Shown: positions 1,679-22,300 of the stretch, in pieces
Layout of the letters: the number at the start of each line of letters is the position of its first letter
Position numbering within the stretch: the first letter of the stretch is position 1
From: Botryllus schlosseri
Lineage: Eukaryota
Direction of reading: 5' to 3'
Assembly: GCA_051294905.1 (NCBI GenBank)
Contig: CM119371.1
Span: 6,946,001-7,010,000 of the forward strand
Length of the DNA stretch: 64,000 nucleotides
Translations under genes and position numbers: made by a program
The notes under the pieces: generated by a model
The model's input: the letters and a program-made list of their open reading frames with translations, nothing else
Told to the model about the DNA's origin: nothing
Databases searched by the model: none

Positions 1679-2304
1679 TAGGGATGTTAAAATTTTTTTT
1701 AATTTTTTCAAATTTTATCGGCTTAGTTGTCAAATCGCCAGGTTACTTAAAAAACGTTGCACACCAAATTTGACTCCATTCCAACCAGTAGAAGCCGAGG
1801 TCAGTCAAATTGAAATTTCGGTCATTTTTGAAATAACAGCAGAAATATATTTACCCGTATTTTACGTGCTTAATATTAGTTCATTTCCTTTTTATGGTCG
1901 TTAATTTCAGTGTGTACAGTACTCTATTTGAAAATGATATCAACGTCGTTTTAATGTGTCTATTTCAAAGAAGTGGACTAATTTCCAGCTAATCCACGTC
2001 ATGTCTTTTTTTCGTTTATTGGCGATGTTTTCATCCAAACCCCACCATAGGACCTTGTCAAGATCAAAACAAGTAGGAAAGACATCCCTGCCTATTCAGG
2101 CATACCTGGAACACGATTTTTGGTCTTGTCGGTGTGACGAAATTGGTCTTAGTAAATACTATTATTTCAAAAATGGCCGAAATTTCAATTTGACCGACCT
2201 CGGCTTCCACTGGTTGGAATTTGGTGCGCAACGTTTTTTTCGGTAACCTGGCGATTTGACAACTAAGTCGATGAAGTTTGTAATTTTTTTTTCGAACACC
2301 CCTA
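1679..2304. mobile_element. MITE family A (TAGGG...CCCTA termini, long internal inverted repeats)
   Basis: ~1717-1840 is the reverse complement of ~2150-2272. TSD lost, with an adjacent deletion relative to paralogues. Confidence 0.75.
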
Positions 2305-2876
2305 ATGTGCAACCTAAATGACATATTTTTCTAAGTCAAGAAAGAGACCATATATTTGCTTTGGCAATAGTCATGGTTAACAAATCTGCAAAAAGCAGTA
2401 GTTCTTGTCCTTTTCATAGCCGTGGCCCAATTTCCACCACTTGACCTCAGTCTTCTCGAAGCAGCGGCAATGCGGCAGGTTTAGGCCTAGCAGTTCATAT
2501 CAAACCATAGATCGTTCTCATGAGCACGAGAATGGCAAATGTATGTATCACAAGCTCAGCTTGTTTCGAACTATACAGTTCTTCTTCAACAAAATCTGTC
2601 CAGTTGACCAAGCCTGTCTGGACGGTATCTGCCATTTCGGGTCAATTGTTTGATTTGGGGGTCCGACTTGGATTGTTACTTAGGGCCTGCAGTGCGCTTC
2701 GTCGTGACAACCTGTGACCAAGGGAGGGGGTCTTGCGTTTGAATTTTGCAAACTCTTCGTTCGATTGAGCCGCCGCATCCTTAGTCGGTTTGGAACGTCG
2801 CGCAGGACTGGGCCGGTTCACGTCCTCCTCGATCTGCAAAAATAGAAGGGGGTCAGTCAATATTAGCATTGAAAAC

Positions 2877-3296
2877 TAGAGGTCGACCGATTATCGGCTT
2901 GGCCGATTATCGGCGCCGATATTTGGAACTTTCTCGAATATCGGTATCGGCCAATCTAGGCCGATATTGCGACCGATATTTTATATCCAACTACAATCTA
3001 CCTTTTCTGAACTGATCTGCAATTCTGTATCATGTTTTGATTTTCGAGTTATCCCAAATTTCAACGAATGTTCACAATTAAGCAATATGTCTTTTCGATT
3101 TCAGTTTTCTCGTTTGTTGTTAACCTTTCTGTGGCATGAACAAGTGCCATCTTGCCTAATATATAATATTTTTGGCGAAATAGTTCTCTGCTCCTTCCAT
3201 ATTAATATCGGCCTATGATATCGGTTATCGGCCTTGTGAGCGTCGAAATATCGGTATCGGTATCGGCCTGTAAAAATCAATATCGGTCGAGCTCTA
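2877..3296. mobile_element. hAT-type MITE with TATCGG subterminal repeats
   Basis: TIRs TAGAGGTCGACCGAT / ATCGGTCGAGCTCTA. Perfect 8-bp TSD TTGAAAAC (2869-2876, 3297-3304). The empty site is seen in paralogues. Confidence 0.9.
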
Positions 3297-3499
3297 TTGA
3301 AAACCCGGGATTTTAAGGTATATTTCTGATAGCGATTCCGGGATCAACTCTATTGAAATCCCGGGATTTAAAAAGCATCTACGAGACCTGACACTACTTC
3401 CACTTACATCATCATGACCTAGCATTCCGAGCAGAAAATGTTCCGGATGTGCAAAATATGCATTTCTGATTTCGTTGTAGCACAGATTGTGCAAGGTTA

Positions 3500-4045
3500 T
3501 GAATTCGTATATCAGGAAACTTTTTATTTGCGAATTCCGGGGATTCACTGAATAAATTAAAAAGTATGCCTAAAAAAAGGCTGCACACCAAATTTAGCTC
3601 AATTCCAACCAGCCAAAGCCACGGCAAAGCAAATTTAAGTTTTTTTTCCAGTTTTTTTTAGGTTTTAATGTCAACCCAAGGAAATTGTTGAGTTGCTTAA
3701 AAGAGCGATGCATAACAATTTTTGCTCACTGCCAACCCGTAGAAGCGGAATTTTTGCAGTTGAAAGTTCTAGATTTGCAAAAATAGCATTTATGGTGGGT
3801 AATTCCAGAATCATTGATGAAAAACTCAATTAACTTCGCTTCTACGGGTTGGAATTGCAATGAATTTCTTTTGCATCGTATTTGTAGACAACTTAACAAC
3901 GTCATGGGGCTGACAGTGGAATTTGCGTCGGGTTCTACTTGTAGGAATTGAGCAAAATTTTGTGTGCAGCGTTTTTTTACTCATCCTAACATTTTAATCG
4001 GTGCATCCTCAGGATACGGAAAAAGGTTATTTTTGGACCGCCCTA
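3500..4045. mobile_element. MITE family A, shared ancestral insertion (left end truncated)
   Basis: Palindromic ACACCAAATTT...AATTCCAACC core. Same right junction as the copies at ~24985 and 52932. Confidence 0.65.
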
Positions 4046-4590
4046 AAGCATGTAATCGCAGATAGCTATTTTTTGTGTCTATTCCGCGACAACTTATAGA
4101 CTTCAACCCCTTCGAATTTACTGGCAATCAGTGAGCCAGATTTATTGCATGATTTCTTTGTCATCTCGGAATGATAAATGCTGAATGTACGATTCTGTAG
4201 GCTGTAAGCATATGGTACGCTGACGGTAAGGAAGATAAGAAGATATGAAAATCCATGGGATTCCAATTGATTCACTTAAGACTGACATTGTCTGCATAGC
4301 GGACAGAATGTTTGCTATGTATTTATACATTGTCACCAATTCTGGATATGTTACAAAATTACACAGAAACTCACCTGTAGTCGTCGTGATTCCTGGAAAT
4401 CTCGATATCGAGATCTTGTCTTTTGGCAGGTGACAAAGAGCCTGAAAAAAATCTAATAATTATACGGCCGAAAAAGTAGAATTGAACGGTAAAACTAAAT
4501 AGTGGTTCGCCCAGCCACCTCGTACTGTATAGAGCAAAAAATGTCAGAAAACGCTGTCACTTGGCGTAGAAAATATGTTGGAGTCCAGAG

Positions 4591-5864
4591 AAGTGGTCGG
4601 GAACCTATGGCTCTTTTGGGTATAAGATATGGCTCTTTGCCAAATTTTCATTTTTGTCCTGAATTGATCAATATTGCGGCGACTTGTTGGTAAATTTTCA
4701 TCACGGCCAGAATAATTATTCTCATGGCAATACAAGTAAAGTATGACTATGAGAGGTAAAGACGATGCCGTCATCAGGTTTGGGGCTCGGACCCCACTTT
4801 CGAAAATCCTCAAATTAAGGTACTGTCGCACTGGCGACCAATATCACTCGCGAATTTTATGTAGGCCTACCCGATCCGAAATCTTGAATTGTGCGATACG
4901 TTGATTGATCAAATAGCATAGCAGACATGGTGACGCCCATATCACAACGCAGTTTTCAAATACACATTATCTTCCTGATCTACGGCGCGAAATGAACTGC
5001 CGTGGACGTGACATTCACAATTATGAACACGAATTACAAACAACGCCATAGCTATCCACGTTCATGATTGGTTAGTCGCTCTGTAGCACCAGCGAATACT
5101 TTCAGAATTGAGAGGTCGATCAGTATTTAGCTTTTCGGAATCAGTGTGACAGTTATATTCGATTAGTATATGGTATGATAAATGGTATGATGGATTGCAT
5201 CATCAACAGTGAGGCTTGCCCCGTCTGTGCCTTACCTCTCATTTCGAGCTTTATTTTCAAAGTTTCATTTCTGAGAAAATTTGGCGCACTCGACGAATCC
5301 CATGTAGTGTTTTTAAAATTATTATGACAATGACGTCACGAATAGGGCTGGGCAAAATCGAGTATGACGTGATAACAGAAGGTAATATGTGAAAGTTCAA
5401 ACATGTAGCCTACTTTTTATGCCACCACAATGAATTTATTGCCTGTTATCCATCACATTAAAGATACTTTGGTATGTTTTCGACCATACCGATTTTATTG
5501 CACTTGGTGACAGTGTTGTGGGATGATCATGACTTCGGAAATGTGCTAGTTCCAGTACCGTTCGTAGCTTTGTACTATATGTTTCGTATGTTACGAGACA
5601 GCCAATCAATGTTTCAAGGCTTCAACAGTGAAAATTACTGTTGAAACTATTATTCTCGTTGATAAATTAAATTCCAGTGGCGAGAAGCGTATAATTTCAG
5701 GCACTCGAAAAAATCGTCTTTTACTACTCAACTGGAATCATTGTTCCCAGCCCTAGTCACGAATTTTCAATTGTGACGTAACAGCTGATTTGCATGTATG
5801 GAGTTAAACTGGAGAAAAATAGGTCCAATAGGGCTCTTCGGACAAAAAATGTTCCCGACCACTG
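4591..5864. mobile_element. hAT/Charlie-like non-autonomous element containing a nested MITE
   Basis: TIRs AAGTGGTCGGGAAC / GTTCCCGACCACTG, degenerate 8-bp TSD, absent from paralogous sites. Confidence 0.7.
5343..5755. mobile_element. hAT-type MITE (nested)
   Basis: TIRs TAGGGCTGGG / CCCAGCCCTA. Perfect TSD GTCACGAA (5335-5342, 5756-5763). Confidence 0.9.
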
Positions 5865-6127
5865 GTCTACGGGGAAACGGTTCAGTTTGGTTAATTCATT
5901 CCATCTTTACGACATTACAGAGACGTCAGTGTCCATTTATACAATTTAGGAAGATTCGATTGTTCAATAAACTATGGCTTGTGCCCAATGTCACGCCAAC
6001 GATGAAAATAGCCATCTCATAAAAGAATTCAACCACAATCGCTACTAATGAATACAGAGGCGTGCACGAATGAATGCTTTACAACGGGATTTCAAGACCA
6101 TGCAGTACAGGTGAGGGTAGCTATTAG

Positions 6128-6387
6128 CAGAGGTGGTCAAAGTAGTCACCGTCGCTACTCAAGTAGAAGTAGAAGTAACGCCGGGATTTCTACTCAAGTA
6201 GAAGTAGGAGTGCTGGTTCACAAGTAAGTAAGTAAGTGGGCATTCTATGCTTATTTTTGCCTACAAAACTGAAAACTGTGAAGTAGAAGTAGTCTAAAAT
6301 CATAACTACTTAAAAAGTAGTTTGAGTAGGCAAAATCTACTTCAAGTACTTCAAAAAGTAGAAGTACTTCGTTACTGACCACCTCTG
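6128..6387. mobile_element. hAT-type MITE family B (AGTAGAAGTA-rich)
   Basis: TIRs CAGAGGTGGTCA / TGACCACCTCTG. Perfect TSD GCTATTAG (6120-6127, 6388-6395). Decayed relatives occur elsewhere in the window. Confidence 0.9.
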
Positions 6388-6849
6388 GCTATTAGCCATA
6401 CCTCAATTGTTCTATTAGCAGTCACGTAAGGTTCATTCAGTCTCTACACACCGGGGTAATACTTTCAGCATTGCTTCAAATTGAAAACTGATAACATTAC
6501 AACAGTAATCAATTCTTAAATACTTATGTAGGTTTGAATAGAATGTTGATGTCCATCCTAATCTAATTTGAAAATACACAGCCAGATAAAACTCACCTTG
6601 AATGATATTTGGTAAACTTGCCTGAAAGATGCCATTTGCTTCACTCAGATTGAACGAAAATCCTTGCCTGTGACGATAAAGAAATAATACATCGGGTTGG
6701 AAAAGATTCAAAATTCGAACTTTACAGTCACCTAATGTGTTGAGTATAATGTGAATAATTTTACTATTTCGAAACACCGCACCATAGCCTTGATGGCAAA
6801 TAATCGAATCCGATTTCATCGATTTTACGAAAAAATGAATTCAGAGTTA

Positions 6850-7688
6850 CTGTAATTTTCCGAATCTAGTGCGCCCCCATGTATAATATGCACCCTTAAA
6901 ATGACGTGTAAATTCTGGGGAAAAGCCTGTACCCATGTATAGTACGCACCCTTTATTCGCAGTACATGAATAGTTGTGTTTTAGTACACGATGTTGTTCT
7001 GTTTTGCGATGTCACTGTCGAACAATCATGACATAGCTATCGCTAATCATAATACAATTAACGGCATTGTCTCTAAACAAGAGTAGATAGTAGCCAAAGC
7101 CTGCGAGGTCGGCGACGAGATAGTTCAGGCTAGCGACACACGACATCTTGCGCACGAGGCCTATTACAATTGCAGATGCGATTGCTCAGGCCAACAGTTA
7201 TGTCTGGCGCACCAGTCCTGTTGGAGATGTGACTGATTACGCAAGCGAATATATCTTGCGCACATGGCCTCTTGTGTATGCGATTGTTAAGGCCTGTTGT
7301 TGACGCGATGAATCAGCAAGGATTGCCGCGCACGCTTGTTGCAATAAGCGACCTAATTTCACTCGCGAACAAACGGCAAACTAACTCAGCAAGAGATCGC
7401 GTGCTGTGCAGACGACACTCGTTAATTGGCAACACGCTTTTCGTTAATGGGCAACACGCTTTTCGTTAATGGGCAACACGCTTGGCAGCGCATTACACTC
7501 TATAATACGAATTACGGGCACGATGGCCAGATGCGCGATTGGAAACAAACATGAAGAAAGGTGTGATTTCAATTTTTTGATCGAGGGATATCTTTTTTAA
7601 GTCATGCTGTACCCATGTGTAATACGCACCCCCCTATTTTAGGGCAAAAATCGGTAAAATTTTGCGCATTATACATGGAAAATTACGG
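6850..7688 (+). mobile_element. Tc1/pogo-like non-autonomous element
   Basis: TIRs CTGTAATTTTCC / GGAAAATTACGG, TA duplication, empty site in copies B (~28030) and D3 (~58957). Confidence 0.85.
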
Positions 7689-11294: not shown

Positions 11295-13125
11295 TTATCT
11301 CTTCACAAATATGGAACCATAAATTTGAAAACGTTGATCCACTTTTGGTGTCACTATCGTCCATTTGTCTTGCGATGTATCATACTTTTCAATTGTATCG
11401 GAGGTTTCGAAATTTGTTACTGCAAAAATCCACCTGTCAATGTGATACACAGAAACCCAATCGTGACAAGCATTCATAGAAGATAAAGAAGTCCAGTGAG
11501 CTGAAGTAACATCGTAACATTCTACGCTGTTGACTTTCATTCCTGGTGTCCAACCGCCGATCACAAAAATCTTTTGATCAACTGCAACAGCACCACTCGC
11601 ATACACAGGATATCTCATTGGTTCGAGATCAACCCATTCTGACGAGGATGGAGTGAATCTGCTGAATGTTGAAACTGGGACATCATCTAGTCCTCTTCCT
11701 CCAATACAATAGATGGAATCATTCAATGATACGAGACTTGTATCGTATATCGCTGTAGGTTTGTCTTTCAGTTGAAACCATTGATTCACAGGGGAAGTAA
11801 ATATTTCCACATCATTTGTTGCTTTAGCAGAGCTTCCTCCAACAACGAATATCGATCCCGAAAAAGAAACTGAGCGAGGACCATCTCCATGGTCACAAAT
11901 CATGTCATTCATTTTTTCCCATTCTGAATTTTTCCTCTGGAAATTGAGTCGATGGACTGATTTATTCCAACATAAGACGTAGATATAAGAGTCCAGAGAA
12001 ATCGCCGAGAAATGTTGTAAACAATGTTCCCTCTAAGCTGCGCACGTGCGCAAATGCGCAGTGCTGAAGCGGTCTCTGCGCACAAAAAACCTCCGTTGCG
12101 CACAAAAAATCCGGAATGATGACCTTTTTTTCAGTCGTTACACACTGTTGTCCAAGGGTCTGCGCAGTAAGTTGGTGATCGTGCGCAGACTCGTCAAAAA
12201 TTAGAGGGAACATTGGTTGTAAATTCGTAAATTTCTCATCATGACACTTCTCGACTTTCTCAGTTACTGGATTGAATGATCGGATACAATCTACGTTATC
12301 ATCAAAAAGAATTATCAAATCATCTTTGCCGATCTCTTCGTTTGTTTTCCGTGATGCTTTTGAAGCCTTCAAAAGATGCCCAGTGATCAGCTTGTACAGT
12401 CCAAAGTCGTTACTGATGATTAGGTTTGCTTCCAAAAGACGTTCTAAAAATGCCGGAGAGACTTCATTAAACTTGATTCCTTCAAGAAATTCGCGCAAAT
12501 TTTCCTGATTTCTGCGATTTCTTTCAACCCAATTGAACAATAACGTTAGTTTTTCGTATTCGCACAACTTTGATTGTTCCGACTTCACAAAATTGAGGAT
12601 GTTAGTTTTATCTATATTTCCAAATTTAGGTTGGTTTGATATCTCCATGATATTTTCATGAAAAAATGCTCTACATCGGGTAGAGACAGCATCCAGTCCA
12701 TACATATCGGCGACATGTCTTGTAGAAAAGTAATTCTCAACATTAACTGATTCCTCCAAAATGTCAGATACTGCCTGTTTCACATCTTCCAACTGCATCA
12801 TGATTGCGACATGAATAAGATCATTCATCTTTTCATCAGGAATTTCTAATTTGCCGGAATATATGAAATCGATGCAGCTTTTCACACACTGAGAATCGAC
12901 CTCTTTCAAAACAACTTTTCCTTCACGACTCTCTTTTGTGTCGTGCTTTAACATCGCTTTGAAATAAGCACAACCAGCCGACAATACATTTCTGTGAGAG
13001 TAATAGACATCATCTCCTACTTGAATTGTGAAATCACAATGATCGTTCTCTTGTTTCATTCGATGTAATTCTTTCATCATCTTCACTGAATGTTTCTCAA
13101 CATTTCGACACACAATCTGCACCAT
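11295..13125 (-). pseudogene. Kelch-like BTB-BACK-Kelch copy 2, frameshifted by a MITE insertion
   Basis: ORFs 11962-13134 (BTB-BACK) and 11295-11912 (Kelch) join in frame when 202 bp (194-bp MITE plus one 8-bp TSD) are removed. The junction reads ...KFTNLQHFSAISLDSYIYVLCWNKSVHRLNFQRKNSEWEKMND..., giving 542 aa with no other lesion. ATG is at 13125. Confidence 0.92.
12022..12215. mobile_element. 194-bp hAT-type MITE inside Kelch copy 2
   Basis: Perfect 15-bp TIRs CAATGTTCCCTCTAA / TTAGAGGGAACATTG. Perfect TSD GTTGTAAA (12014-12021, 12216-12223). Confidence 0.95.
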
Positions 13126-13710
13126 GATTGTCAATCAACTACAGTATATAATGATCCTACGATAATTATAATATAGTCAAACTCAAACACTGTTTTTGAA
13201 TTGAAGATGATTAGTAGTAATGATTATAGTAATGCCTGTCGAAAGAATCCTAATACGTATATCAACGTCACGAGTATGAATTGAATGAAATTAAACTACA
13301 CACAAGGTGAACACTGAATAGTGCTAAATCAGAGGCATCCCCGCCATAATGCAGTTATGAAAACTTCTTCCATCAATTTGCTTTACTTGTTATTCGTTGT
13401 ATTGACATCATGACACGAAACCAAAGAGTTATTGCGGTCGATAACCCTCACCAGTTACCACTACCTCGAGAATGATCGAGTTGATTATCCGTAATCTATA
13501 ATAATTTTATACTATGGTATATTCCAGGTGCGGCCGCATCTGTTTAATGCTCCAACCGAATATCACAAAGATTGGTTTTAAAAGACCAGCAAAACGAAAG
13601 ATCGCACTGATTTCACTATAGAGTATGACTGGAGTGACGACTCGATTGTTCTCCCATTGTTAGCCGGCAGAATGGTCACGGTCAGATGGATCCGATAGGG
13701 TTGGTGTTCA

Positions 13711-14920
13711 TACCTTGCAAATGGGTAACAAATCTTGCAAATGGGTAACGATTTACCTTGCATATGGGAAACAAATCTTGCAAATGGGTAACGATTTACC
13801 TTGCATATGGGAAACAAATCTTGCAAATGGGTAACGGTTTACCTTGCATATGGGAAACAATCTTGCAAATGGGCATGGACTGATTTCACCTTGCAAATGA
13901 CCAACAACGGTCGAAACACAAGGCATGGTGGGGTCATCCACCCACTAGTGGAGCAAGACCCAGATGGGTCCCCCCCACAAATTCGGCGAAATCCAAATCC
14001 AAATTAAAAAATCCAGATGCTCATTCAAAACTGACGGCAATTGGTGCGGTCGAAACACAAGGAGGGGTCATCCGCCCACCAGTGGAGCAAGACCCAGATG
14101 GGTCCCCCCCTCACAAATTCGGCGAAATCCAAAGCCAAATTTAAAAATCCAGATGCTCATTCAAAACTGACGGCAATTGGTGCTACCATATGACCCCTCC
14201 CCACCACCACCACCACCACCACCAATTCGAATAGATCCAAATCCAGATTTCCATCAAATCCAAATCTGAAAATCCACATTTTTATCCAAAACTGACGTCA
14301 CCCCTCCCCACCACCACCACCAATTCGAATAGATCCAAATCCAGATTTCCATCAAATCCAAATCTGAAAATCCACATTTTTATCCAAAACTGACGTCAGA
14401 TGTAGTTGGTGCTAGCATATATGCCCCCCACCAATTCAGCGAAATCCAACTCCAGATTCTCATCACGATTTACATTGAAATCAATCAGTTATGCAAAGGC
14501 AAGGACTTACCTTGTAATAGACGATAAATCCATCAGTTATGCAAAGGCAAGGACTTACCTTGCAAATGGGTAAGGATTTACCTTGCAAATGGGAAACAAA
14601 TCTTGCAAATGGGTAACGATTTTACCTTGCATATGGGATACAAATCTTGCAAATGGGTAACGATTTACCTTGCATATGGGAAACAAATCTTGCAAATGGG
14701 TAACGATTTACCTTGCATATGGGACACAAATCTTGCAAATGGGTAACGATTTACCTTGCATATGGGATACAAATCTTGCAAATGGGTAACGATTTTATAC
14801 CTTGCACATGGGAAACAAATCTTGCAAATGGGTAACGGTCTATCTTGCATATGGGAAACAAATCTTGCAAATGGGAAAGGCTTTACCCTGCAAATGGGAA
14901 ACAAATCTTGCAAATGGGAA
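13711..14920 (+). repeat. 43-bp tandem repeat blocks (left arm)
   Basis: Unit TACCTTGCATATGGGAAACAAATCTTGCAAATGGGTAACGATT, built of two related ~21-bp halves. Blocks at ~13711-13875 and ~14560-14920. Confidence 0.9.
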
Positions 14921-15353
14921 AGGACTGATTTCACCTTGCAAATGACCAACAACGGTCGAAACACACCACATGGTGGGGTGGTCCGCCCACCACTGCAGCA
15001 ACTCCCAGATGGGTTCATCCCCATATGACCCCTCCCCACCACCACTAGTGCGGTCAAAACTCACAACAGGTGGGGTCATCAGCCCATCAGTTGAGTGATA
15101 CCCGGATTATCCCTGCTATCAAGCAATTATGCCTACTTATGCTTACTTACTTTTCGCCATTTATAGTTTGTCAAACTAATAAATCTGCTAGATCACGACC
15201 AATCGATAAAGCCACCTGTCGCCAGTTCTAGTTGCGCAATCTGAAAATCCAGTTGGGGGTGATACTTACAGACAAAACGAAAGTGACCAATGGCCATATG
15301 TATTCAGAATATACAGAATATACACTTATACAGTGTAGGAGGAACGAATAGGC

Positions 15354-16476
15354 CTAGCAAAAATCGTGGCAATGTTCGCAATAAAAAAATTCTTTTGGTG
15401 CAGATTTCCCAGGGCTGCAATCCGTGTGGGTCCATCTATTGCAATTGTTACACTGGACCTAGAAAAATTATTGGAATTAATTCGCGTAACAAAATGACTG
15501 GAGTCAATCACTTAATACCCAGTCTGTGTTGTCTCCTGGTGGTGTCTCAGGAGGTGTCTCAAAGTAGCATTTCACACAATATTCGGACAACTCTTTCTCA
15601 TCTGTAGAGATAGTGGTTTACTGATTATACCGTAGCCGCCAAGAAGGCGTGGATATATGTATTTACTTGTTTTGTCGAGCAGCATTTGTCCGAATACCTT
15701 CCTGTACCCGACACAAGCATGCGTCGAATGGTTGAAGCCGAACTCCATACCTGACGCAGGAATCGATGCTCCGCCATCTTTACAATAGACTTCAGCAGCC
15801 TAAAGTTACACCGATATCATTAAAACTTTAGCTTGGCGGCAAACTTGCCACGCGAAATTATATAGGCATCACAAACCTTTAACACAAGTACGCCGCAATC
15901 AAAACCATCTTTCTGAACTTCCGGTCTTGTTTTTGGTATTATCGATGTCACATATCTTCGTGAAGAAAATGTCCGGCGGAATTCTCTCATCAATTTGTCA
16001 AGCTTGGGCACTTGTCTTTTTGTACCGATGATAGATTTTGCGACTTTATCAAACTCCGCCGCAGACATGTTATGCAATGCCTCTATGAGTCGATCTTCAG
16101 TCATCTCTCGACAGTCGGCCTCCAAAGATCCATCTGTTTTTGACACTTTACGATATTCCGTATTCAGTAAATAGGGCCCACTTCGACTTTGTTTTCCGAT
16201 GAATGGTGACCACTTTGACAAGTTGGGAGTAATGCACCACTCGGATACTCGCCTTTTCGGAAATCCCCGCAGTACCATATTGAGTTCGACTTTTTCCCAA
16301 AATTCATCACAATTGACTTCATCAATCTCTGGATCCAGATTAGACGGACTTAGTTGCGATGCTGGGCATCGAAAATTGATTTTTTTGCAGAGATCCATGA
16401 TCAATATCGTCGGGTGATTACCGCATAAGTCACAGCTGAAGGAGTATTTGTGATCAGAAATAGCTTCGAAATGCCT
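15354..16476 (-). pseudogene. Internally deleted, spliced KDZ/Zisupton-type (HMGXB3-like) transposase relic with SAP-like segment, Ulp1/C48 protease C-terminus and PHD finger
   Basis: Exons are ~16476-15877, 15799-15667, 15601-15519 and 15458-15354, with GT-AG introns of 77, 65 and 60 bp. The spliced product reads HFEAISDHKYSFSCDLCGNHPTILIMDL...DEFWEKVELNMVLRGF...WSPFIG...LLNTEYRKV...TEDRLIEAL...PEVQKDGFDCGVLVLK|AAEVY...YRKVFGQMLLDKT|NEKELSEYCVKC...DW|VQCNNCNRWTHTDC...FFYCEHCHDFC*. Confidence 0.8.
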
Positions 16477-16491
16477 TCCTTGATTGGTGGA

Positions 16492-16592
16492 TAATAATAA
16501 TAATAATAATATAATAATTTATAGAGCGCCGAATATAACAATATATCATTATTACACTAGGGCGCTGTACATAAAAGGCAATAAAATATAAA
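16492..16592 (-). mobile_element. Short retroposon 3'-end fragment with (ATT)n tail
   Basis: The minus strand reads ...TGTACAGCGCCCTAG...GGCGCTCTATAAATTATT(ATT)n. A second copy lies in the opposite orientation at ~46420-46513. Confidence 0.5.
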
Positions 16593-17689
16593 ATCCGCGA
16601 TTTACCAACGAAAAACTCACATAAATCCGCTTCTACTGGTCGGAATTGACTCAAATTTGTTTTGCAACGTCGTTGAAGACAGCTCAACAATTTCATGGGG
16701 TTGACAGAAAAATTTGGAGAATTATTTTTTTTTATTTTCTTGTTTAAATTAAAAAATTCAATTGGATCTTCGGAGCCCGCCTATACTTGTTCGAATTGAA
16801 CCAAATTTGGTGTGCAGCGTTTTTTAGGGTAACCTGACGATTTAAGAGGTGACCGGCTTGAATCGGGAAAAAAGTTATTTTTGAACAGCCCTACTGTCGG
16901 ATGGCCGGCGGGATACTGTTTCACACGTGAATGTGGACTCTGGACATATGCTCGTCGACTGTCGGATGACCGGCGGGATACATATATGTTCCACACGTTC
17001 ACACACACATGAGCATCGACGTAAAATACACATAATTATTGGGGTTATAATGATTGAAGGCGTCACAATTTTCTTTTACTCATCGTGGCGACAGGTGAGT
17101 AACAGAGGAAGGCACTGCCTCGCCTGAGCTCAAATCACTCGGATTGTTGTGTGTGCGTGTGTGTGTGTGTGGGGGGGGGTCATATGGTTGCACCAACTAA
17201 CTGACTGACTGACTAACTGACTAATTTAGTAATTAAGATTTGGATTTCGTCTAATTTGTGGAGAGGGACCAATCTGGCCGCTCCACCCTGTCGTGAATTC
17301 AAACTGTTCCTGCATGGCCATTAGCAAGGTCAAATCAATACTTGCTCATTTGCAAGGTAAAGCCTTTCCCATTTGCAAGATTTGTTTCCAATTTGCAAGT
17401 ATGCAAAAAGTAAGTAAGCATAAGTAGGCATAATTGCTTGATAGCAGGGATAATCCGGGTATCGCTCAACTGATGGGCTGATGACCCCACCCACCTGTTG
17501 TGAGTTTTGATCGCACTATAGCATCTGGACACTATAACATCTGGATTTTTTAATTTGGATTTCGCCGAATTTGTGTGTATGGGGGGGGGGGGGATGAACC
17601 CATCTCGGTCTTGCTGCAGTGGTGGGCGGATCACCCCACCATGTAGTGTGTTTCGACCGTTGTTGGTCATTTGCAAGGCGAAACCAGTC

Positions 17690-18710
17690 CTTTCCCATTT
17701 GCAAGATTTGTTTCCCATATGTAAGGTAAATCGTTACCCATTTGCAATATTTGTTTCTCACATGCAAGGTAAATCGTTCCCCATTTGCAAGATTTGTTTC
17801 CCATTTGCAAGGTAAAGCCTTTCCCATTTGCAAGATTTGTTTCCCATATGCAAGGTAAATCGTTACCCATTTGCAAGATTTGTTTCTCATATGCAAGGTA
17901 AATCGTTACCCATTTGCAAGGTAAAGCCTTTCCCATTTGCAAGATTTGTTTCCCATTTGCAAGGTAAATCGTTACCCATTTGCAAGATTTGTTTCCCATT
18001 TGCAAGGTATATTCTTGCTCATTTGCAAGATTTGTTTCCCATTTGCAAGGTAAATCCTTTCCTATTTGCAAGATTTCTTTCCCATTTGCAAGGTAAATCG
18101 TTACCCATTTGCAAGATTTCTTTTCCATTTGCAAGGTAAATTCTTTCCTATTCGCAAGATTCTTGCCCATATGCAAGGGCACACCTTGTCCATTTGCCAG
18201 GTAAATCGTTGGATTTCTGATGAATTTCAAGGTAAATCGTGATGAGAATCTGGAGTTGATTTCGCTGAATTGGTGGGGGGCATATGCTAGCACCAACTAC
18301 ATCTGGCGTCAGTTTTGAATCAAGATTTGGATTTTCGGATTTGGATTTGATCGAAATCTGGATTTGGATCAATCCGAATTGGTGGTGGGGAGGGGTCATA
18401 TGGCTGCACCATTTAACGTCCGTCAGTTTTGGATGAACATCTGGATTTTCGAATTTGGATTTGGATTTCGCTGAATTTGTGGGGGGGTGAACCCATCTGG
18501 GTCTTGCTTCACTGGTGGGCGGATCACCCCACCACGTCGTGTGTTTCAACCGTGTTGTTGGTCATTTGCAAGGTGAAATCAGTCCTTGCTCATTTGCAAG
18601 ATTGTTTCCCATATGCAAGGTAAATCGTTACCCATTTGCAAGATTTGTTTCCCATATGCAAGGTAAATCGTTACCCATTTGCAAGATTTGTTACCCATTT
18701 GCAAGGTGCG
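17690..18710 (-). repeat. 43-bp tandem repeat blocks (right arm, inverted)
   Basis: Reverse complement of the same unit. Blocks at ~17690-18160 and ~18590-18710. Confidence 0.9.
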
Positions 18711-18737
18711 AGCACCAACCCTACTCGCTGATTACGG

Positions 18738-19234: not shown

Positions 19235-19362
19235 AATGTTCACAATAAGAGCAATTCTGTTCACAATAAGAACAGTCTCATGTTCACAATAAGAGCAGTC
19301 ATGTTCACAATAAGAGCAGTGTCATGTTCACAATAAGAGCATTCGTGGTATTCACAATAACA
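19235..19362 (+). repeat. 21-23-bp tandem repeat (ATGTTCACAATAAGAGCAGTC), probable transposon subterminal array
   Basis: About six imperfect units, starting just after the point (~19200) where homology to the Kelch upstream region breaks off. Confidence 0.75.
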
Positions 19363-22300
19363 ACAGCCGCTTAGCGCGTTATTTTAGACTTATCGGTGAC
19401 CAAAAGTGTGATTTTGTTAAATCTGCGACCGCTAAACCTCAGATCCTTAAACCACCTACCCTCGCTGGTTTAACTCGCTCAGTATTGACCTACGTCCAGT
19501 GTTTCCGCCAACTGCTCTCAATTAATGCCCAATGCAGTGGTTCTTATGCTATGTGTAACAGAACAGCAAAAGAACAAAACAAAGACTGATATGCAAGGAT
19601 AATTAGTTTTTGCATTTGCAGTGTAGTGTAGCCGTTACCAATGATATATATATTTATCATTGCGGTTACTGGCGGGGTAAACCTTGTGCTATCAGTAGCA
19701 ATTTTTCAGTTTATTAATATTACAATACAATACAATGCATTGGGTTATAATTTTCGTCTGATCAAGCTACATATACAATGTACAATGCGATAAGACACAA
19801 TGCAATGTAACGAACAGATAGGAGGATGTCGAACGACACGCATCAGTAGCGATCCTTTACTCAAACATCCACCTCGGCCTAGAGTGCCCGATGTCACAGT
19901 TCTTTTTCGATTTTGATCTTTTTTGAAGCCGCGGCCCTTTCAGCAAATTCGGCTCGCCAAGTAGGCCTACTTCATTTTTCCTTATCCGGCCCGCCCCCGT
20001 TCTAAACGTTCACCGTATAATAATCAGGTTGACAACTCGCTAGATTCACGATTTCATGCTTTCTACACAGTTTATTTTTACAAACAGTAGACAAGTAAGA
20101 AACCCAATTTTACGTGATTCATTTCGCAGTAAATTATAAGAGTTGACTTTTACGCAGATGAAAGCAACAGATAGAACGAAGACAGAGATACATTGAATTT
20201 CAAGCTTAACCTGAACACAGTCGTGTCTTAGAATATGGAACCTAAATTGCAGTTTCCCTAAGTCAAGAAAGAGACAGTGTTTCGGCTTCGGGAATAGTGA
20301 GGGTTAACATATCTGCAAGTAGTGATTCTTGTCCCTTTCCGTAGCCATAGCCCAATTTCCATTTTGCAAATGTGCCATGACCCACAACTATAGGCCTAAG
20401 TCTTCTTTTAAGCCATTGCAATATGGCAGGTTTAGGCCTAGCAGTTCATATCAAATCATAGTTCGTTCTCATGAGCAGAAGAACGGCAAATGTGTGTATC
20501 GCAAGCTTGGCTCGTTTCAAACTACACAGATCTTCTGTCGCCTTGACAGGGAAACTGGAAATTAGGGTGGAACATTTCCCAAATTATATTAGAATTAGAG
20601 CAAGAAACATTTCTCAAATTAGATTATAATCAGATTACTGGCATTTTCCTCGAATTAGGCAAAATCAGACATCTGATATTATCCAATTGTCCAAGTCTGT
20701 CTGAATCGTCTCCGCCTTTTTATTTAACTGTTTGATTTGGGCGTCCGACTTGAACTGTTACTTGGTGCCTGCAGTGCGCTTCGCCCTGTCACTAGATGTC
20801 GAAAAAATGAAGGAGGAGCTTTTCGTAACGAGTTCTCCCTCGACAAATTTGCAAATTTTGTCGGTGTCTGATTCCGTGGTCGTGACAACGTGTGATCCAG
20901 GGAGGAGGTCTGGCGTTTGAATTTTACGAATTATTCGTTTGAATGAGCCGACACATTCGTACTCGCTTTGGAACGTTGCGCAGCACTGGGCCGGTTCACG
21001 TCTTCCTCGATCTGCAAAAATAGAAGGGGGCCAGTCAATATTAACATTTGAATCCCGGGATTTCAAGGTTTATTTCTGAGAGTGATACTGGGATCAACTC
21101 TATATTGAAATCCTGGGATTTAAAAAAAACATCTACGAGACCTGACACTACTTCCACTTACATTGTTTTCTTGCAAAACTAGGCCTATAATACCTTACTC
21201 TTTACTTATTCGGAAATTTGTACTTCTACTTGTACTCGAGTAGAAATTTACGACGCTACTCGTCCTTCCATTTGAGTACCAACAATGAATACTTTGTTCT
21301 TCTCCTGAAACAGCGATGTCGAATGACCTCCAACCCCAACCTTCACCCACATTTGTCACCCACCTTTTTACATCGGGATCGACCGACTTTTCCTGTAGGC
21401 ATCCGTACCAATGGTGGGTCTTGGGAAACTTTCTGGCGGTTCACTCCCAGCTACTGGGTCGACCTTTTATTAATCGGGCGGCGTGACGGAAATCCTTCCC
21501 GAGCAAGGGTGACACTGGAATAAAAGGGGGTCAGTTTTTTGGACAACGCTAAGCAAATTGCGACAATGACTCGATTACAATCATAATTGTAAATATACAG
21601 CATCTCCTAAATTACATTAGAAGAAGTTTTGAAAAAATTAGATTACAATTATTGAATTTACGAAAACTTGCACATTGAATGAAGTTCAGTTCTTATTAAA
21701 TCACAGAGTTCCTTTTCATGAGAATGGCAAATTCCTGTTTCTTGACTCGATTCAAGCGATACAGTTCGTCTAGATCCATTTCAGGAAAGCCAGAAAATAG
21801 ATACGTTATAAAATTAGAGCATAGAAATATTTCATAAATCAGATAAGAATTACACAACTAAAAATATCTAGTTGTTCAAGTCTGCACAGTGGTGGTCAGC
21901 AACAAAGTACTTCTACTTTTTCCAAGTAATCCAGTATTTCCCCACTACTGGTAGCAACTAAAATTTCCGCTACTTTTACTTGTAATCCGTCATATTTCGT
22001 AACTTGACTACTTTTCACTATTTCCACTTTGTCAAGAGGATGTGTTATGTTCTTCTGATAAGAGAGATAGAGTGACTAAGGCGGAGAAATTCAGGGGCTG
22101 CTGTTGCGGAGTGCCCAGACTTTTTGTCGTGCCTTGCACGAAGTTATGGGGTGACCAATATCTTTCCACTAAAGTCTGGGTCAATATAATTGATGTTGAA
22201 GTTTGTGTGTTTGTGAAGTTCATGTTTGTGTGTTTGTGAAGTTCATGTCCATATGGCAGTTTCATGACATTTAACAGGCTCAAGGTTCAGCAAAACGTTT

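Follow-up and report, generated by a model that had tools for sequence, protein, structure and literature searches.

The window analysed here is a stretch of 64,000 nucleotides from Botryllus schlosseri (NCBI GenBank assembly GCA_051294905.1, contig CM119371.1, forward-strand positions 6,946,001 to 7,010,000), and coordinates without a prefix refer to it. On its minus strand, at 15354-16476, a reading made from the letters alone (in the following the sequence-only reading) had described a spliced transposase relic of the Kyakuja-Dileera-Zisupton (KDZ) type, fused to SAP-like, Ulp1-like protease and PHD finger modules. We compared this relic with copies of its family in the same genome (named C2, C5, C16 and so on) and with homologous proteins. 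The relic lies inside a repeat-armed non-autonomous element, which the sequence-only reading had not noticed.

The spliced reading frame and its introns

The minus-strand stop-to-stop frame at 15820-16518 encodes 232 aa and includes the peptide on which the sequence-only reading was built. Its part from 16476 to 15877 is linked, across three GT-AG introns, with a C4HC3 PHD finger. The introns and the exons downstream of the first are as follows:

Intron 1, 15800-15876, minus strand: 77 nt, GT-AG; joint seen in public runs; present in the gene model of the C16 copy
Exon 2, 15667-15799, minus strand: end of the Ulp1 region and linker
Intron 2, 15602-15666, minus strand: 65 nt, GT-AG; retained in one X4 contig
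Exon 3, 15519-15601, minus strand: first CxxC of the PHD finger
Intron 3, 15459-15518, minus strand: 60 nt, GT-AG; joint seen in public runs
Exon 4, 15354-15458, minus strand: remaining PHD finger (CxxC-x4-H-x2-C-x12-CxxC) and TAG stop

Excision of 15800-15876, 15602-15666 and 15459-15518, each starting with GT and ending with AG on the minus strand, leaves a frame of 963 nt with its TAG stop at 15356-15354. The relic frame stays open over 306 codons, across a deletion junction described below and the three introns. The joined peptide passes through DCGVLVLK/AAEVY and then through CVKC-x19-CNNC-x4-H-x2-C-x12-CEHC. Exon 4 alone matched the Pfam PHD model at positions 14-47 of 47 (E 1.9e-4) with 21.8 bits, which is under the cut-off of 24 bits because the first CxxC lies in exon 3. 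The C4HC3 spacing can be read directly from the peptide, with a Trp two residues before the His, and exon 4 gave a tblastn match to the PHD finger of homologue P0062 (E 0.014). The spacing and the Pfam match thus bear out the complete Cys4-His-Cys3 finger of the sequence-only reading.

All three GT-AG introns recur at corresponding positions in the C16 copy, which is 85-86% identical. In raw RNA reads (about 6% and 13% of the two runs were read) and in assembled contigs, the 60-nt intron was skipped in two contigs and in 1+4 reads, the 65-nt intron in one contig and in 1+1 reads, and the 77-nt intron in two contigs and in eight reads from six starts. The introns shared with C16, the joints in the reads and the PHD match of exon 4 show that the three splices are real and beyond chance; a chance open reading frame was considered as an explanation and rejected. 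The predicted introns and their in-phase join to the finger were therefore confirmed, with exact coordinates and with GT-AG kept in a homologous copy. All three joints were found in reads, but with the letters of paralogous copies. The motifs quoted in support of the transposase recur in the consensus of the family alignment A1.

Deletion junction and retained domains

The coding part upstream of intron 1 is composed of the following features:

Filler with an (ATT)n run, 16475-16591, minus strand: separates the truncated coding part from the 5' region
Transposase fragment, 15988-16474, minus strand: matches residues ~570-731 of the C16 open frame
CDLCGNHPTILIMDLCKK motif, 16381-16434, minus strand: family consensus CxxCGxxPxxxxxDxxxK (A1)
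SAP-like helix-extended-helix, 15988-16101, minus strand: second helix cut by the deletion
Deletion junction KLDKLM/REFRR, 15986-15987, minus strand: keeps the AG that serves full-length copies as splice acceptor of the downstream exon
Ulp1 (C48) Gln/catalytic-Cys exon, EVQKDGFDCGVLVLK, 15877-15985, minus strand: fused in frame to the transposase fragment

The window sequence 16474-15987 aligned to the C5 copy (L021 3369-3856) with 90.6% identity, and 15987-15327 aligned to the same copy (L021 6413-7064) with 86.1% identity, 2,556 bp further on. As the matching halves are this far apart in C5, KLDKLM/REFRR is a deletion junction; comparison with C16 revealed the same gap at 15987. The C10 sibling, 99.6-100% identical here, reads past KLDKLM into the transposase core, and in the C3 sibling (96.9-98% identical) acidic repeats and an intron lie directly upstream of the fused exon. 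The lost ~2.56 kb held the remaining core, the acidic repeats and the Ulp1 exons with WLND, His and Asp. The four copies C5, C16, C10 and C3 thus agree with the in-frame deletion that had been proposed at this place, with most of the core and the His/Asp half of the protease gone. No GT is present on the 5' side of the junction, the 3' side keeps the acceptor AG and at most 2 nt are shared at the junction; the kept AG together with the missing GT indicates a loss at the DNA level. The 3' breakpoint lies 2 nt upstream of the exon start (L021 6411-6413), so that the AG is read within an in-frame Arg codon. This closeness to a splice acceptor is an apparent coincidence.

The relic is also 5'-truncated, which corrects the earlier account. 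Transposase homology to C5 and C16 ends sharply at 16474 against the filler. The filler had no homology to the C5 and C16 copies upstream of 16474, and a part of it (query 638-740) matched an unrelated C2 locus. About 570 N-terminal residues are gone, including the zinc fingers and the CxC4 cluster.

The retained transposase fragment (15988-16474) is 90.4-90.6% identical in DNA to C16 and C5 and holds the first putative catalytic-Asp strand and the SAP-like insert. In the structure model the CDLCGNHPTILIMDLCKK motif falls on beta strand 1 (13-19) of the predicted RNase-H-like core. The ratio of nonsynonymous to synonymous substitutions (dN/dS) in the retained part was 0.28-0.32 against C5 and C16, a value that reflects selection on once-active lineages and not on the window copy. 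The SAP-like segment aligned to the Pfam SAP match at 962-992 of homologue P0016. Among the 117 homologues scanned with Pfam (27 long, 72 further and 18 core-only), 15 matched SAP at the aligned place, five of the 18 core-only members of A1 included, and in a fold search the SAP domains of FAN1, SIZ1 and PIAS1 were the best matches (Z 6.1-7.6, model residues ~107-175). Pfam SAP had no match in the window's own peptide or in that of C16; the SAP-like module named in the sequence-only reading is therefore supported through its homologues, not through the window sequence itself.

For the protease we used an Ulp1 profile of our own, built from ten homologue domains of proteins that match Pfam PF02902 or a relative's domain. 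The Gln/Cys exon of the window alone matched positions 166-183 of this profile with 5.1 bits, and the homologous C16 exon is part of a match of 39.4 bits. Pfam C48 had no match in the relic at E <= 10, nor did any Pfam family match the exon-1 peptide (200 aa) or exon 2 at that threshold. The His-Asp-Gln-Cys set is incomplete in the relic, where only the Gln/Cys segment is left; with the WLND, His and Asp exons among the deleted sequence, the claimed loss of the His/Asp half proved correct.

Element termini, full-length copies and transcription

The element around the relic is made up as follows:

Whole non-autonomous element, 13693-18726, minus strand: 5,034 bp; both family termini, no target-site duplication
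5' terminus, 18692-18726, minus strand: imperfect terminal inverted repeat, starts GAGTAGGGTTGG...
5' arm, 17231-18691, minus strand: subterminal arrays of a 43-bp unit repeating the terminal CTTGCAAATGGG motif
5' internal non-coding region, 16592-17230, minus strand: common to sibling copies, 93-98% identity to C2, C10 and C3
3' untranslated or internal region, 15101-15353, minus strand: common to siblings; 98% identity to C3 (query 1246-2131)
3' arm, 13728-15100, minus strand: 43-bp arrays (13711-13873, 14559-14944) with 136-bp and 98-bp repeats
3' terminus, 13693-13727, minus strand: ends ...CCAACCCTATCG

The element was delimited by how far homology to the C16, C10, C3 and C2 copies extends on either side. 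The 5' terminal 35 nt were found identical at the left end of the C10, C3, C2, C6 and C1:304xxxx copies, and the 3' terminus, too, is identical to that of sibling copies. The two 35-nt ends are inverted copies of each other, imperfect in the first 4 nt, and are followed by inverted arms of ~1.4 kb, whose repeat pairs are 85-98% complementary; the tandem arrays of the 5' arm lie at 17691-18178 and 18591-18707. Perfect 8-bp target duplications flanked six of seven elements, namely C10 (7.5 kb), C3 (11.3 kb), C2 (6.4 kb), C16 (12.7 kb) and the C6 and C1:304xxxx derivatives (~1.9 kb). The latter two (C6:13981405-13983345 and C1:3040573-3042520) consist of arms only, with both termini and the perfect duplications AAATATAG and GAACTCCC, and are members of the same transposon family resembling miniature inverted-repeat transposable elements. 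Within the 5' internal region, 16592-16897 is a repeat of ~300 bp that recurs at tens of other loci, often in adjacent inverted pairs (C1:35404656-35405278). Read depth on it was very high and loose read ends were seen at 16592/16593; it looks like a separate small non-autonomous element or a repeat similar to short interspersed nuclear elements.

The 200-aa exon-1 peptide was matched 27 times in the 495-Mb genome to which the window belongs, and the matches include open frames of 1141 aa (C5), 1222 aa (C16) and 1355 aa (C11). Full-length copies spanning the deletion, which the sequence-only reading had suggested looking for, were thus found. The C16 copy, 12.7 kb long, has terminal inverted repeats and an 8-bp target duplication. 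Its gene model comprises ten exons and nine GT-AG introns of 56-347 nt, with 1,497 codons and no stop, and would encode in this order zinc fingers, the CxC4 cluster, the transposase core and its SAP insert, acidic repeats, the entire Ulp1 domain and the PHD finger. As far as the sequence allows this to be judged, the ten-exon gene appears intact. The boundary before the Gln/Cys exon was supported by one contig of a sibling copy. The joined C-terminus accounts for the 39.4-bit Ulp1 match and contains the catalytic set in order: WLND, NHW, YD 17 residues later and Q..G.NCG. The profile was also matched, weakly but in the same order, by the unjoined exon fragments of C16, C5 and C3; Pfam found nothing in the single putative Ulp1 exons of C16, and the joined model alone scored.

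C16 represents a sister subfamily to the window copy, with 83-84% protein identity. In the window's own subfamily none of the four copies examined was intact, and every copy looked at had different internal losses; identity among copies within a subfamily is 93-99.6%. The suggestion that an autonomous element may still exist in this genome is therefore supported by the apparently intact C16 copy, but for the sister subfamily rather than for that of the window.

The more distant C11 paralogue (C11:16814501-16824500, L023 2155-6222) shares 65% identity in the common part. In one intronless frame of 1,355 aa it encodes a core, repeats, Ulp1 and PHD together with a SprT-like metalloprotease motif, whereas the C5/C16/window lineage has nine introns. 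A BLAST comparison of the window's C-terminal part with the C11 protein gave nothing below E 4.7, and in tblastn of C11 against C16, C5, C3, C10 and the window the core was the sole match. The C5 composite (L024+L021) contains at ~1848-7516 about 5.7 kb in its 5' region which are missing from C16, presumably a nested insertion.

Family members are transcribed and spliced, and the reads stem from paralogues, not from the window copy. At position 15391 the window has a private T, with C in the three siblings compared; nine of nine raw reads showed C and none T. At 15900, where the window has C, all 14 reads showed T and none C. Raw RNA depth was zero over 16018-16503, and no read bridged 15987. 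The homology of two X1 contigs to the junction region ends at 15986 and 15988; beyond these points one carries on with the upstream Ulp1 exon and the other with the core, the pattern expected of full-length copies.

Affiliation and origin of the relic

Pfam CxC4 (PF18717), a cysteine cluster that Pfam describes as associated with KDZ transposases, matched all three full-length frames with 31.2-37.0 bits against a cut-off of 26.9 bits; it lies N-terminal to the core and is absent from the relic, which begins downstream. The C11 frame in addition matched Peptidase_C48 (22.8 bits, cut-off 20.7 bits), with PHD and SprT-like under their cut-offs. The core retrieved 1,210 cluster representatives at E <= 1e-3 from a library of 1.84 billion proteins; those relatives that bear a name go by HMG domain-containing protein 3 or 3-like (from the sea cucumber Holothuria, the tunicate Styela and fishes), and the nearest cluster of the language-model Atlas bears the same name (score 0.97). 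The 27 long homologues matched CxC4 (19), Peptidase_C48 (6), PHD (3), PHD_5 (1), UCH (3), SprT-like (2) and SAP (1), and the 72 further homologues CxC4 (36), SAP (9), Peptidase_C48 (8), UCH (2), CxC7 (2) and OTU, Josephin, PHD and SprT-like (1 each). The C-terminal protease slot thus varies between Ulp1/C48, UCH/USP, OTU, Josephin and SprT-like modules, sometimes two at once (P0012, P0039, P0105 and members of A2), suggesting repeated swapping of modules that remove ubiquitin or SUMO. An F-box was present in two family members.

The Zisupton superfamily was reportedly first described in fish by Bohne et al. in 2012, and SAP and Ulp1-type protease modules are part of Zisupton proteins. According to two publications, Zisupton elements generate 8-bp target duplications (PMC12730594) and are multi-exonic, with proteins of up to 1,400 aa (PMC9297572). 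The Botryllus family resembles them in its terminal inverted repeats, in the 8-bp duplications of six of seven elements and, as far as the C16 model goes, in a multi-exon gene for ~1,500 aa with an Ulp1-type protease and a SAP-like module. It differs in the lack of a match to the Pfam KDZ core PF18758, which others used to define Zisupton homologues. Candidate further differences are the arms of ~1.4 kb with their 43-bp repeats and the PHD finger at the C-terminus. With HMGXB3, the nearest named relative of the core, the family shares the motifs CxxCG..P, FW..V, WAP.IG, LNTE and TEERL. The Botryllus copies, however, are copies of a mobile element at many loci, with ends and target duplications, and not a single host gene; Pfam found no HMG box in any of the three full-length frames. 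The fungal KDZ elements, in which PF18758 occurs with CxC1-CxC7, are similar in that CxC4 was found in the three frames and in 61 of 117 homologues, and CxC7 in two, and different in that PF18758 does not recognise the Botryllus core and no TET/JBP gene was seen.

We interpret 13693-18726 (minus strand), with a probability of about 0.9, as a dead, twice-deleted non-autonomous copy of a large multi-exon Zisupton/HMGXB3-like (KDZ-associated) cut-and-paste transposon. The homology, breakpoints, termini, target duplications, splice sites and family transcription on which this is based were observed directly. The complete element would measure ~12.7 kb, be flanked by an 8-bp target duplication and end in imperfect terminal inverted repeats, next to which lie ~1.4-kb arms built of 43-bp repeats. 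It would encode a protein of ~1,500 aa with N-terminal zinc fingers, CxC4, an RNase-H-like core with SAP insert, acidic repeats, an Ulp1-type cysteine protease and, at the C-terminus, a PHD finger. Of this the window copy has kept both ends, transposase residues ~570-731, the last part of Ulp1 and the PHD exons with their introns, and it has lost the N-terminal 570 residues and core strands 2-5 with the second and third putative catalytic residues. Without these strands and the WLND/His/Asp exons of Ulp1, the relic encodes neither a transposase nor a protease, and its open frame reflects youth and a chance in-frame junction rather than function. The deletions may have arisen by interrupted gap repair after excision, as is generally known for such derivatives. 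The arms are putative binding sites of the transposase, and the catalytic roles of the named residues are likewise putative.

Internally deleted non-autonomous derivatives of cut-and-paste elements are familiar from Ds of Ac, KP of P and dSpm. As in those, both ends are kept and the interior is lost, the deletions differ from sibling to sibling and arm-only forms of 1.9 kb exist; in contrast, the junction in the window happens to leave a long open frame that is spliced, and a target duplication is missing.

Several observations weigh against this interpretation. Pfam PF18758 had no match in the three full-length frames (threshold E <= 0.1) or in the 117 homologues (thresholds E <= 0.001-0.01). 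A six-frame genome scan with this model gave no match, but control genomes gave none either, hence the scan is uninformative; a profile search directed toward PF18758-labelled proteins returned 33 proteins, none with that label. The link to KDZ consequently rests on the description of the CxC4 model, on the names of the sources and on language-model neighbours, of which two Atlas clusters contain PF18758 (scores 0.90, with 10% of members, and 0.85). The KDZ/HMGXB3-like transposase of the sequence-only reading is thus borne out by CxC4 in all three frames and by the relatives named HMG domain-containing protein 3 but not by PF18758, and the family is accordingly filed as Zisupton/HMGXB3-like and KDZ-associated, not as a PF18758 member. 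The Zisupton assignment is based on ends, duplications and gene layout. The structure model of the core was weak (mean predicted local distance difference test score, pLDDT, 59.7), and over residues 5-342 its fold search paired it with the ISCth4 and Tn5 transposases and with retroviral integrase cores, at Z values (4.4-5.5) that often arise by chance. This is at most consistent with an RNase-H-like core with a SAP insert after the first strand, in which case the window copy would have retained the first strand, including the Asp of ...IMDL, and the larger part of the SAP-like insert.

In the C16 model, six of the nine introns were deduced from sequence only, the three shared with the window having been seen as joints, and the E-value of the Ulp1 match (2e-14), obtained with a self-built profile, refers to a search space of one sequence. 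The RNA nature of runs X1 and X4 is a guess, and as only parts of the runs were read, the silence of the window copy is unproven and weak expression possible. A simple insertion would have a target duplication, and the window element has none; its flanks taatcagc/gatccatc agree at four of eight positions. A rearrangement after insertion is probable, such as a deletion between two copies lying side by side, and would account for the missing duplication. A genome search for reciprocal junctions of an inversion between two copies yielded two 2-mismatch matches for one pattern and none for the other, nothing convincing.

The truncated frame might instead be a working gene of the host or of the element, encoding a SAP-like and PHD chromatin reader or a trans-acting transposase inhibitor. 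Its 306 open codons across the junction and three introns, the intact splice sites, the existence of family transcripts and the dN/dS of ~0.3 against C5 and C16 speak for it. The low dN/dS, however, is expected from the divergence of once-active subfamilies and is uninformative on the window copy. There is no start codon or upstream exon, homology ending at 16474 against filler; RNA depth is zero over 16018-16503 and the private letters at 15391 and 15900 occur in no read. Each sibling copy is deleted differently, and the SAP-like part is cut in its second helix. We therefore regard a working gene as very unlikely. It is just as doubtful that such deletion derivatives are not inert, although by analogy with the KP repressor a SAP-like/PHD product, which would bind DNA ends and chromatin but have no catalytic parts, might act as a trans-dominant regulator of the transposase or mark an early domestication of a chromatin reader.

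There is an even slimmer chance that the Ulp1 and PHD exons are fragments of host genes captured by transduplication and lie outside the transposase gene. Introns do separate them from the big exon, and BLAST detected no similarity to the Ulp1/PHD part of the C11 paralogue, but in C16 they are in phase with the transposase exon within one frame of 1,497 codons, and the order core, Ulp1, PHD and sometimes SprT-like is found also in the single-exon C11 frame and in homologues of other animals (P0009, P0004, P0036). It is hardly credible that the 2.56 kb were removed at the RNA level, whether through an unusually spliced transcript that was turned back into DNA or as one large intron of this copy. 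The in-frame junction and the 3' breakpoint within 2 nt of a real acceptor would agree with this; the acceptor AG, however, is still in the DNA at 15987-15986, the 5' side lacks a GT, and the three downstream introns and both transposon ends are all kept. The preferred interpretation remains a relic deleted at the DNA level within a transposon copy.

Since the relic cannot act, it is itself of little importance, and its value lies in the family it led to. The finding is correct but fairly ordinary and brings no surprise, transposons of this kind being known already. A Zisupton/HMGXB3-like family survives in this genome in good condition; it is transcribed, its ends are clear, and it has 8-bp duplications and, in C16, what appears to be a complete transposase-Ulp1-PHD gene. 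As few descriptions of such elements include both complete ends and a gene model, the family is useful as an annotation reference. The varying protease slot suggests the removal of SUMO or ubiquitin marks as a general strategy of such elements, and the family is natural material for the question of the origin of vertebrate HMGXB3. Multi-exon transposon genes are easily mistaken for host genes, and the database relatives of this one bear a host-gene name, HMG domain-containing protein 3.

Just outside the element, a 21/44-bp tandem repeat is present at 19236-19366. Just past its 3' end, a frame of 390 aa at 11962-13134 (minus strand) with BTB (E 6.7e-22) and BACK (E 1.5e-11) domains is an exon of a Kelch-like host gene.

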